64,000 nucleotides of DNA from Candidatus Jordarchaeia archaeon (GTDB lineage Archaea; Asgardarchaeota; Jordiarchaeia; Jordiarchaeales; Jordiarchaeaceae). The stretch covers positions 27,053 to 91,052 of the forward strand of contig JAHQXB010000063.1 of NCBI GenBank assembly GCA_029856435.1. The letters are read 5' to 3'. The translations under genes and the position numbers were made by a program. Of this stretch, positions 5,745 to 30,772 are shown piece after piece; the stretch's first letter is position 1; each line of letters starts with the position of its first letter. The notes under the pieces were generated by a model. The model did not search any database, had not been told where the DNA came from, and worked only from the letters and a program-made list of their open reading frames with translations.

Positions 5745-6325
5745 TTTTTAAGTCCTCCTTCCTAAGTTGGACTTTCTTCTAAAATTTTTGTTTCACTTAT
5801 ATAAGATTATCTATTTACAATTGTATAGTATTACGACAAACGCCGAAGCGAACCAAGAAAGGGAGAGTATGGCTTTAGCCAAGGGGAATTAAGAATATTC
5901 AAAAAAATTTTTTATTGATATTAGAAATTAAGTCAAAAAAGGTGATTTAACTAATAATATGAGAATAAGCCTTGTTAGCGGGGAAAATATATAAAAAATT
6001 ATTATTTTAAATTATTTTTATATATATTAATAATTGAATAACTATTTTTATTTGAAAAAATATAAATATTAAGTCAAAATTGTCAAAAAAATTCAAAAGA
6101 GGGACAGAAGCGATTTAACCAACGAAAATTGTCGTAAGAATTCTGTTTAATTGACAAAACCGTTAAAAGAAAAAACCAAACATATAATTTAATGGTTTAA
6201 ACAAATAACTTTTAAAGATAAACAAAAGCACGTATATAAAAGCCAACTAAACGCCCCCAAAAAAGCCCTAAAACGCGAAAAAGAAAAGATTCATCCCCAG
6301 AAAAGGGAAAAGCAACGTAGAAACA

Positions 6326-20492: not shown

Positions 20493-20559
20493 AATATATA
20501 AACTTTATAAGATTACACCCACAAAAAGGAAAACAAAAACACCACAAGGGAGAAAAAGT

Positions 20560-21930
20560 ATGACACAAACGCAAAAAGGAGAAAAATTTGAAGTCAAAGA
20601 CCTAAAACTAGCACCAAGCGGACGAGCAACAATTGAGTGGGCAGAATCAAGAATGCCCGTGCTCATGCAAATAAGAGAGAGGTTCCGAAAAGAAAAACCG
20701 CTTAAAAACACCATAGTAGGAGCATGCCTCCATGTAACAAAAGAAACAGCAGTTCTTGCAAAAACCCTGAAAGCTGGAGGTGCAGAAGTCTACCTCTGTG
20801 CCTCAAACCCCCTATCAACACAGGACCATGTAGCCGCCGCACTGGTAGAAGAAGGAATAAACACATTCGCCTGGAAAGGCATGGACTACGAAGGCTACTA
20901 CCGAGCAATAGCCAACGTTATTAAGGGAGAACCGAACATCACACTAGACGACGGCGCCGACCTAGTATCAACCTTAATCAAACTCAAAAGAGGAGAAACC
21001 GGCGAGGAAATCAAGGTAGTTAAGAAAATTCTTGGAAGCCGAACAGACTGGGCGGACAAAGTATGGGCCGGAGCCGAGGAGACCACAACGGGCGTAATCC
21101 GCCTTAGAGCCATGGCAAAAGATAACGTGCTACTATACCCAATTATAGCTACAAATGATACCCCCACAAAATGGGAAACATAAACACCCCCCGTGTTTAA
21201 GCCCAAATTTGACAACCTGTGGGGAACTGGGCAAAGCACCATAGACGGCATACTGAGAGCAACAGCAGACCTTATCGCGGGCAAAATTTTTGTAGTCGCA
21301 GGGTATGGCCATTGCGGTAGAGGCGTAGCGCTAAGAGCTAAGGGGCTAGGAGCGAGAAGAGTCATCATATGCGAGATAAATCCACATCGAGCCTTAACAG
21401 CCGCCTTAGAGGGTATGGAAGTAATGCCCATGAGGGAAGCCGCAGAGGTGGGAGACATTTTCGTAACCGCCACAGGATGCAAGAACGTCATAAATGCAGA
21501 ACATATGAAAAAGATGAAAAACGGAGCAGTGATGTGTAACACAGGTCACTTTAATGTGGAAATAAATATACCTGACTTGGAGAAAATCAGCGTTAGCAAG
21601 AGAGAGATAAGACCACTAGTCGATGAGTACACACTGGAGGATGGAAGAAAAATCTACCTACTAGCCCAAGGCAGGCTTGTGAATCTAGCATGTGCTGAGG
21701 GACACCCAAGCGAAGTTATGGACATGAGCTTTTCTGATCAGGCTTTAGCTGTGGAGTGGATTGTTAAGAATAGGGATAAGCTGTCTGGGATGGGTAGTGT
21801 GGTTTTGGATATTCCTGAAGAGATTGATAGGACTGTTGCAGAATTGAAGTGTAAGGCTATGGGTCTTAGATTAGATGTTTTGACCCCTGAGCAGGAAGCT
21901 TATTTGTCGGGCTGGGCTGAAGGAACCTAG
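20560..21930 (+). CDS. ahcY: S-adenosylhomocysteine hydrolase, spliced join(20560..21177,21208..21930), 446 aa
   Basis: [27 protein letters not shown] in part 1; [37 protein letters not shown] in part 2. Removing 30 nt restores [11 protein letters not shown]. Confidence 0.95.
21178..21207 (+). other. BHB-type intron in ahcY mRNA (30 nt, in-frame TAA)
   Basis: Central helix UGGG/CCCA; bulges AA|A and AA|U; inner stem C(A)UAAACAC/GUGUUU(A)G; outer AA/UU; spliced TGG GAA TTT GAC. Confidence 0.9.
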
Positions 21931-22611: not shown

Positions 22612-23730
22612 ATGGATACTGAGGAAAAGGTTCAGCGTGTCTTGCGTGGCTTGAGTGAGGTTATTACTGTTGAGGATTTGCGCAATTTGTTTGAGGTAGA
22701 TAACCACCCTAAGGCTTACATAGGTGTTGAGCCTTCTGGATAAACCTTTTAGGCTTTCTAGGGTTCCAGAATATTTCATTTGGGCTGGGTGGTTTGGGCC
22801 TGGAAGGTTCAGGATTTGGTTCTTTGTGATGTGGATATGCATGTTCTCGAAGCGACTTGGCATGCTAAGATTAATGACAAGTTTGGTGGAAACATGGATA
22901 CCATACACACCTGTGCAAAGTATATTGAGCACTGTTTACAAGCGTTGGGTGTAGATATTGGTAGGGTTCGTTTTCCAAAGGCTGAGGATCTTATGGATAG
23001 TTTGGATTATTGGGCCACAGTGATAAACATTGCTAAAAACACTACGCTGGCACGTATTAAGAGAGCTATGAGTATTATGGGCCGCAAAGTAGACGATGCT
23101 GAATCGGATTATTCAAAAACGCTTTATCCTTGCATACAAGTGGCTGACATCTTATATGCTGGTTTTAAGCTGTGTCTGGGTGGGACTGACCAGAGAAGAG
23201 CTCACATATTGGCGAGGGAGTTGGCTCCTAAGTTCGGCTTGGATTGGAAGCCGGTAGCGATTCACACTCCTCTCCTCATAGGCTTGGAGGGATTATCGAG
23301 GATGGAGGTTGAAGGTGTGAATGAGGATGTTTTAATGGAGGCCAAGATGTCGAAATCCAAACCTCAAACAGCAATTTTTATACATGATAAGCCAGAGGAA
23401 ATCAGGAGTAAAATCTCTGCTGCCTTTTGCCCACCTAAACAGGTAGAATTCAATCCAATAATTGAAATAAATAGGCTTCTTCTTTTTTCCAGAGAAGGTT
23501 TCATTCTTCATGTGGAACGTGAGGAAAAATTTGGAGGGGATGTAGATTTTGAGAGCTTTGATGAATTGAAATCTGCCTACAGCGCCGGTAATCTCCATCC
23601 TCTGGACTTGAAACGGGCTACTGCAGAGGCACTCATTGCACTGCTGAAAAATGTTAGACAACATTTTGAAAAGAATAGTGAAGCCCGTAACCTTTTAGAA
23701 ACATTAAAAAAGGCTACAGTGACCCGGTAA
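22612..23730 (+). CDS. tyrS: Tyrosyl-tRNA synthetase, spliced join(22612..22741,22772..23730), 362 aa
   Basis: GGAGG then ATG at 22612 gives MDTEEKVQRVLRGLSEVIT...AYIGVEPSG; spliced HIGH motif PSGLFHLGW; downstream YPCIQVADI, GGTDQRRAH, KMSKS. Confidence 0.95.
22742..22771 (+). other. BHB-type intron in tyrS mRNA (30 nt; unspliced frame has TAA and two TAG)
   Basis: Central helix CUGG/CCAG; bulges AU|A and AA|U; inner stem AACCUU/AGGGUU; spliced GGA T|TA TTT CAT. Confidence 0.9.
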
Positions 23731-29740: not shown

Positions 29741-30772
29741 TCACTTCCTCAGCACTATAATTTGACGTGTTAAACTCTTGTGTACCGGTATCAAATGTTT
29801 TTCTACTATTCGAAAACTTGTCCCCGAAATAAATTCATTTACATTGATTGTTAAGGGAGTGCCCAGACAGACATATCCCTTTGGACTAGATAGTTCATCC
29901 AATTCCTGTAAGAAGAACTCAATAAGTTCCTCGGGGCGGGCGCCCTTAGTGGAGGCCGATCCTCCGTATGGAGGATCCGTTGCTATGCTGTCAAAACGGT
30001 TGAAGGGAAGATGCTTTGCGTCTGAAAGTATAATGTTCCAGTTGACTACGTTGAAGTGTAGGAGGTTCCTTTTCGCGCCTCGAACCATTTTTTTGTCTAC
30101 GTCGGAACCTATAGTTTTACAACCCATAAGGCCCGCCTCAATTAGAAGACCTCCCGCTCCACAGAATGGATCCAAGAAGAATTCTTTGGGTCTAGCCCGG
30201 GAGAGATTAACCATGGCTCTGGCAAGATGGGGATTCATAGAGCTGGGAATAAAGAAAGGCCTGAACTTTGCCTTTCTGAGACCTAAGGCCTTCCTTTCAG
30301 ATTCCCTGACACTTATCCCAAATAGGAATACGCCGTCCGTTAAAACGCCATAAAACAATTTATCAGGGTTTTCAAGATTGGCCCTTGCCCCCACACTTCT
30401 ATGAATGAAGGCGCCGATTTCTTTTTCCAAAAGGAGTGAACTCACCTCCGGTGAATAATTTTTTATGCGTTTCACTCTAACGGCAAAAGTTTCTCTGGCT
30501 GAGATGTGTTTCTGAAAATCTGTGTCTCGAAGCGAAGTCATTATCTGGTTGAAATCCGCTTCACATTTAAATAGTGAAATGCAGCATCTGTGAACCATTG
30601 CGGCGCGTTCAGCTATTCTTTGGCAGCTCTCTTCCTCCGCGTTTAAGAGTAGTATTTGGTCATATTTTTCTGCTTTATAATCCATGTTCAGGCTTTCAAG
30701 TATTGCTAAGCACTCTGCAATGGCTATTGTTGTGGTTTCTCCAGATAGAAGGTAAAAATGGTTTTTAATCAC
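29741..30772 (-). CDS. trm11: tRNA m2G10 methyltransferase Trm11/Trm-G10 (THUMP plus MTase)
   Basis: THUMP domain, RPFF...ARAMVNL, DPFCGAGG, ATDPPYG. Confidence 0.9.
   Translation of the reverse strand: MIKNHFYLLSGETTTIAIAECLAILESLNMDYKAEKYDQILLLNAEEESCQRIAERAAMVHRCCISLFKCEADFNQIMTSLRDTDFQKHISARETFAVRVKRIKNYSPEVSSLLLEKEIGAFIHRSVGARANLENPDKLFYGVLTDGVFLFGISVRESERKALGLRKAKFRPFFIPSSMNPHLARAMVNLSRARPKEFFLDPFCGAGGLLIEAGLMGCKTIGSDVDKKMVRGAKRNLLHFNVVNWNIILSDAKHLPFNRFDSIATDPPYGGSASTKGARPEELIEFFLQELDELSSPKGYVCLGTPLTINVNEFISGTSFRIVEKHLIPVHKSLTRQIIVLRK

Follow-up and report, generated by a model that had tools for sequence, protein, structure and literature searches.

An intron in the pre-mRNA of cbf5 of Crenarchaeota was reportedly described by Watanabe in 2002 and by Yoshinari in 2006. 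Introns in this gene, which encodes an RNA-modification enzyme, occur in Desulfurococcales and Sulfolobales (Yokobori 2009; PMC2738675). They are short inserts of the bulge-helix-bulge (BHB) type in protein-coding sequence, they have to be removed to restore the open reading frame (ORF), and, as a result of gain and loss, they occur patchily among relatives. The motif is often relaxed, the endonuclease is heteromeric, and cleavage takes place between the second and third residues of the bulge (PMC2738675). Apart from general reviews, full-text searches of the literature yielded no gene other than cbf5 with a BHB intron in its coding sequence (PMC2738675); introns in protein genes are mentioned neither in the paper on Freyarchaeia genomes (PMC11291895) nor in a 2026 preprint on Asgard tRNA introns (bioRxiv 10.64898/2026.10.13.758758).

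Small introns that are placed only by a local BHB-like fold are known from the non-canonical tRNA introns of Freyarchaeia/Atabeyarchaeia and of Thermoproteales (PMC11291895; bioRxiv 10.64898/2026.10.13.758758), and in relatives of the lineage studied here 92–95% of the tRNA genes contain introns, often at non-canonical sites (PMC11291895). In eukaryotes, HAC1/XBP1 splicing removes a small intron from the mRNA at structured sites with protein enzymes only, after which the tRNA-splicing ligase (tRNA ligase/RtcB) joins the ends and a functional frame results; the excision there is performed by IRE1 at paired stem-loops and is regulated by stress (PMC13149111).

Here, we describe an insert at 21178–21207 in the coding sequence of ahcY, the gene for S-adenosylhomocysteine hydrolase (SAHH), of a Candidatus Jordarchaeia archaeon; positions refer to the window, that is, the whole stretch of 64,000 nucleotides that was analysed. 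Judged by its sequence and that of its relatives, the insert is very likely a real archaeal BHB pre-mRNA intron. It resembles the crenarchaeal cbf5 intron as a short BHB-type insert in protein-coding sequence whose removal is needed to restore the ORF, and in its patchy distribution. A relaxed motif, a cut just past the second residue of the bulge and a heteromeric endonuclease, all three predicted from sequence for ahcY, would also be common to both. Unlike cbf5 of Crenarchaeota, the host gene encodes a metabolic enzyme and belongs to the phylum Asgard; also unlike cbf5, ahcY is interrupted at several positions, up to three times in a congener and more often in another family. The ahcY intron is an analogue of the cbf5 intron, not the same intron. 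With the tRNA introns of Freyarchaeia it shares the small size, the placement by a local fold, the lineage and, presumably, the enzymes; its substrate, however, is an mRNA, and splicing would decide whether the protein can be made. The likeness to HAC1/XBP1 lies in the type of reaction, whereas a BHB motif and EndA would take the place of the stem-loops and IRE1.

The interrupted ahcY gene

The ahcY gene is located on the plus strand (20560–21930) and is broken in frame by 30 nt (21178–21207), as seen from the ORF list and the translation. ORF A starts with ATG at 20560 and has 207 codons, ending with ...TPTKWET and the stop at 21183; the stop is an in-frame TAA (21181–21183) within the insert. 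ORF B is in the same frame as ORF A and runs on to the stop at 21930. The first piece matches AdoHcyase in Pfam (PF05221, E 2e-47), and the second piece matches the AdoHcyase NAD-binding domain (PF00670, E 4e-56) and the C-terminal part of PF05221. Exon 1 (20560–21177, plus strand) comprises 206 codons for the substrate-binding domain up to ...NDTPTKWE, and exon 2 (21208–21930, plus strand) has 240 codons and a stop for the NAD domain and the C-terminal part. The joined product of 446 residues has both Pfam domains and aligns end to end with solved structures of SAHH, the best match being the enzyme of Sulfolobus acidocaldarius (7r39, E 7e-139). With the insert left in place, 10 residues have no counterpart in the homologue, and the gap falls exactly between T-K-x-x and F-D-N. 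A protein search found one copy of ahcY in the genome, which is a metagenome-assembled draft of 3.54 Mb in 181 contigs with 5.7% contamination. About 50 nt 5' of the ATG, the sequence TTTATAA (20504–20510) could plausibly serve as an archaeal TATA box, and GGGAG directly precedes the start codon.

Structure of the 30-nt insert

The BHB motif is built from the insert and the six exon bases upstream of it. The 5' strand of the central helix (UGGG, 21172–21175) is part of exon 1 and pairs with CCCA at 21202–21205, inside the predicted intron; this pairing is formed in every minimum free energy (MFE) fold. The 5' bulge is AAA (21176–21178) and the 3' bulge AAU (21206–21208), so that the 4-bp helix has a 3-nt bulge at either end, one in each strand. 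Between the two bulges lies an inner hairpin (21179–21201), the stem of which (21179–21187 with 21193–21201) has 8 of 9 pairs, with A21180.A21200 as the sole mismatch, and closes a loop of five C residues (21188–21192). The first-pass annotation had claimed a 30-nt insert with a stop codon in ahcY, on which sequence and ORF translations agree, and had given the BHB with its UGGG/CCCA helix, its AAA and AAU bulges and its inner stem of 8 out of 9 pairs as they are found here.

The cleavage rule of the cbf5 intron (PMC2738675) places the predicted cuts after 21177 and after 21207, yielding a junction GAA-TTT in phase 0, between TKWE and FDN. Excision at codon boundaries, as also proposed in the first-pass annotation, is in line with this rule, and the predicted junction is the TKWEFDN of the intronless orthologues, from which the 30 nt are missing. 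Because of a run of A residues at both borders, excision shifted by 1 or 2 nt upstream would give an identical product. A different placement of the 10 residues (removing KWET-stop-TPPVF to leave TKPKFDN) was rejected, since TKWEFDN is what the orthologues without the insert encode and the other register is the one set by the BHB. The hinge motif K-x-x-F-D-N is intact only after excision of the insert; the active-site hinge residues in this motif of SAHH are Lys186 and Asp190, the Lys being catalytic and the Asp ribose-binding (PMC4647836), in agreement with the active-site role that had been ascribed to the Lys and the Asp.

The helices flanking the motif differ in length: the inner one has 8 of 9 bp here (9 of 9 in two congeners, G002 and G005), and the outer exon-exon helix beside the 3' bulge consists of 2 A-U pairs only. 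The MFE fold favours a helix of 4 bp (CAAA/UUUG) and, in place of a clean 3-nt bulge on the 3' side, an internal loop of 1x2. We call the motif relaxed on account of this 1x2 loop and of the two-pair outer helix; it fits the HBh' form and not the strict canonical hBHBh' form. The fold of 91 nt around the insert was no more stable than those of shuffled sequences (z = −0.97). The MFE fold also contains a distal exon-exon pairing of 7 bp (21162–21225 on the plus strand, with 21162–21168 pairing with 21219–21225), 10 nt beyond the outer helix. This helix was discarded as evidence, as similar complementarity is present in an intronless orthologue; it is not independent evidence because both arms encode conserved residues.

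A self-splicing group I or group II intron was rejected as well, given that the insert has only 30 nt, versus hundreds of nucleotides for a ribozyme core, and that there was no Rfam match (20900–21500, E ≤ 1). Further copies of the insert sequence were not found in the genome, and there is therefore no sign of a mobile family.

Inserts at the same site in related genomes

The site was compared within the order, which is represented by 11 species genomes in the collection (Candidatus Freyarchaeota, Jordarchaeia, Jordarchaeum). Seven species have an insert at precisely the same site of ahcY: every one of the six members of the genus, and G009, which belongs to the sister family. Its length is 30 nt in the window genome (G000), G003 and G004, 27 nt in G002, 29 nt in G001 and G005, and 23 nt in G009. 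Three of the seven lengths (29, 29 and 23 nt) are not multiples of 3, and reading through can therefore not rescue ahcY in these species. The four genomes of genus g2 (G006, G007, G008 and G010) and G033 have no insert and all read TKWEFDN. A JGI metagenome contig carries the G004 version of the insert, and a pattern scan of the genome contigs returned only the six known relatives. After excision, an ORF of 446–447 residues is obtained in every species. Compared with the congeners, dN/dS is 0.02–0.07 for the whole of ahcY and similar in both exons (0.03–0.10 for exon 1 and 0.01–0.05 for exon 2); to judge by these ratios, both exons are under strong purifying selection.

Across the seven species, no change is seen in either strand of the central helix or in either bulge. 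The A.A mismatch of the inner stem is replaced by A-U in G002 and by G-C in G005, and two other pairs have changed to G-U. The loops (CCCCC, CACCC, CAACU, UACCC, CA or UGAA) vary in sequence and length. In the three closest species (G004, G003 and G001), the exons of which have a dS of 0.27–0.39, 1–3 of the 5 loop nucleotides have changed, compared with 0–1 of the 25 in stems and bulges. The insert of G009 has an unrelated inner stem, yet it is situated between the same UGGG-AAA and CCCA-AAU. Formal covariation is weak, with one pair changed on both sides in the alignable set and the same score reached by 81 of 500 shuffles, because seven related sequences give little power. The interpretation of the insert as an intron, put forward in the first-pass annotation, gains from this comparison: seven species are occupied with 23–30 nt, three of them out of frame, and the helix and bulges are kept while the loops are free to vary.

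Further inserts in ahcY of other Asgard genomes

In the closed Freyarchaeia genome G005 (CP147778.1), ahcY contains three BHB-type inserts (G005:C1:1875600-1878000, minus strand; L034): one of 56 nt at TTTG-IVRL, one of 29 nt at TKWE-FDN and one of 191 nt at GHPS-EVMD. Removal of all three gives an ORF of 446 residues; the middle exon is annotated by NCBI as 'NAD(P)-dependent oxidoreductase' (P0185). BHB-type inserts at GHPS-EVMD are also present in G021, G035 and G052, which belong to three other Asgard families (L035 about 1215–1265, L036 about 1160–1200, and L062 about 1300–1340 on the reverse strand); these have the same phase-1 junction and unrelated inner sequences. In G027, a BHB-type insert at GHFDIE-I (L037 about 1050–1085) has a central helix AUUG/CAAU and AAA bulges. 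Two genomes of family f20 (G052 and G059; L062 and L063) carry a 32-nt insert at FD-N, 6 nt downstream of the site in the window, and further inserts at CEE-TTTG, AAA-EGHPS and GHPS-EVMD, making at least four per gene.

A second gene in the window may be interrupted in the same way, as excision of 22741–22770 (plus strand) joins 48 and 319 codons of tyrS (tyrosyl-tRNA synthetase) at ...EPSG-IFHLG. This segment was missed by the strict motif scan described below, and its helices must therefore include G-U pairs or mismatches. It seems likely that EndA-type mini-introns are a regular feature of essential protein genes in intron-rich Asgard lineages (Freyarchaeia/Jordarchaeia and three or more further families), with ahcY occupied at six positions or more and by up to 3–5 introns per gene, and that mRNA splicing by the tRNA machinery is obligatory genome-wide.

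Chance rate of the motif and search for spliced products

The rate at which the motif arises by chance was estimated with a strict scan of both strands, using a 4-bp Watson-Crick central helix, 3-nt bulges, at least 8 of 9 inner pairs and a length of 28–60 nt. The window gave 8 matches, compared with a mean of 1.66 in locally shuffled sequence (128 kb). The shuffle rate corresponds to about 1e-5 per position, and the match in ahcY lies exactly on the insert. Three of the 8 matches represent one AT-rich palindrome; an intergenic, AT-rich perfect palindrome that is BHB-like on both strands is located at 5988–6025. The match at 30245–30298 (minus strand, 54 nt) was rejected and is probably due to chance, being in frame within an unbroken ORF of 343 residues; this ORF (29741–30772, minus strand) is methyltransferase-like, and the match illustrates the false-positive rate. 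The strict version was used instead of a looser BHB scan, which was uninformative (2422 matches versus about 1900 in shuffled sequence).

Spliced products were sought in two collections. In the JGI metagenome contigs, a pattern allowing 0–30 nt between the exon ends retrieved one contig, which bears the intron; neither spliced cDNA nor intronless DNA was found there. Among 5.8 billion predicted proteins, no full-length (250–798 residues) or junction-spanning product with more than 73% identity was present. Shorter proteins nearly identical (97–100%) to that of the window genome all start only at exon 2, and P0134 and P0136 (86% identical) are frame-shifted gene calls that read through an intron.

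Splicing machinery and proposed pathway

The genome contains two genes with PF01974 (EndA; L001 1178–1756 and L002 1195–1788) and one with PF01139 (RtcB). In its best match, one EndA pairs with the catalytic subunit of the heterotetrameric enzyme from Aeropyrum pernix (3p1z_B, E 3e-45); this EndA retains the catalytic His, the residue that is replaced in the 3ajv mutant. The second EndA aligns to that of M. jannaschii and has no His at the catalytic position. Because one EndA has the catalytic His and the paralogue does not, the gene content suggests that the splicing endonuclease is a heteromeric (alpha-beta)2 enzyme, composed of the catalytic subunit and the His-less paralogue. The RtcB gene (G000:C93:302-1636, minus strand; L060), the only one in the genome, has one in-frame TGA inside the Pfam match.

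In the proposed pathway, UGGG of exon 1 would pair with CCCA, close to the 3' border of the intron, forming the 4-bp helix and the two 3-nt bulges with the 9-bp inner hairpin behind them. The presumed (alpha-beta)2 endonuclease would cut after A21177 and after A21207, RtcB would ligate the exons (GAA-UUU), and the intron would be released. Only the spliced mRNA would yield the SAHH of 446 residues with the hinge T-K-W-E-F-D-N intact, and in the unspliced mRNA the TAA would end translation after 207 residues. Cleavage and ligation of the ahcY mRNA themselves are steps that we infer.

Alternative explanations

The two ORFs could in principle form a split gene, in which ORF A (207 residues) and ORF B (245 residues, from GTG at 21193) give two independent polypeptides that together make up an active hydrolase. 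In every species a separate ORF B could start in frame, at GTG within the stem or at ATG within AAATGGG; the gene models made by gene callers (P0151 and P0185) are precisely these fragments, and the break falls in the hinge between the two domains (PMC4647836). We nevertheless regard this as improbable, as the inserts conserve their RNA helices and not the peptides that they encode, the Lys and Asp of one active-site motif would be separated by the break, and the predicted excision matches the orthologue sequence to the base. Two separate subunits are also unlikely because the same reading would divide the enzyme of G005 into four polypeptides, one with about 29 residues, and that of G052 into still more. 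The in-frame TAA, or the frameshift in three species, would fit a pseudogene that was inactivated by a small stop-bearing insertion, but the low dN/dS (0.02–0.07) holds in both halves at a dS of up to 1.5, ahcY is a single-copy gene with no other lesion in the seven species, and the insert has been retained with a conserved structure across two families; inactivation is thus very improbable.

About as little can be said for translational recoding, that is, read-through of the TAA or ribosome bypassing, by which a longer or joined protein would be made without RNA splicing. With 27 or 30 nt, the insert keeps the frame in four of the seven species, and like bypassing elements it has a hairpin. 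Read-through fails, however, where 29, 29 or 23 nt shift the frame, and it would place 10 residues within K-x-x-F-D-N that have no counterpart in any homologue; for bypassing, matched take-off and landing codons that give the orthologous spacing are not seen in the sequence. The draft state of the metagenome-assembled genome, with its 181 contigs and 5.7% contamination, raises the matter of an assembly or sequencing artefact, or of a functionless chance hairpin. Given that the insert is found in seven independent assemblies, including a closed chromosome of 3.58 Mb, and in the JGI contig, and that the motif occurs at a rate of about 1e-5 per position, we consider this hardly credible.

Implications

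In this Asgard archaeon, the production of a core enzyme of the methyl cycle almost certainly depends on splicing of its mRNA by the tRNA-splicing enzymes; the only other archaeal protein gene of this kind in earlier papers is cbf5. If RNA data confirm the ahcY intron, interrupted protein genes and obligatory non-spliceosomal splicing of mRNA would exist in the archaeal group nearest to the eukaryotes. Gene callers would then systematically mis-annotate such genomes, and metabolic reconstructions would score the genes as broken or absent. Gain and loss of introns in protein genes would, in the same event, become directly testable in a small and well-defined system. Should the wider reading, of mini-introns in essential protein genes throughout these lineages, be true, obligatory mRNA splicing by the tRNA machinery would be a genome-wide trait in some of the prokaryotes most closely related to eukaryotes.
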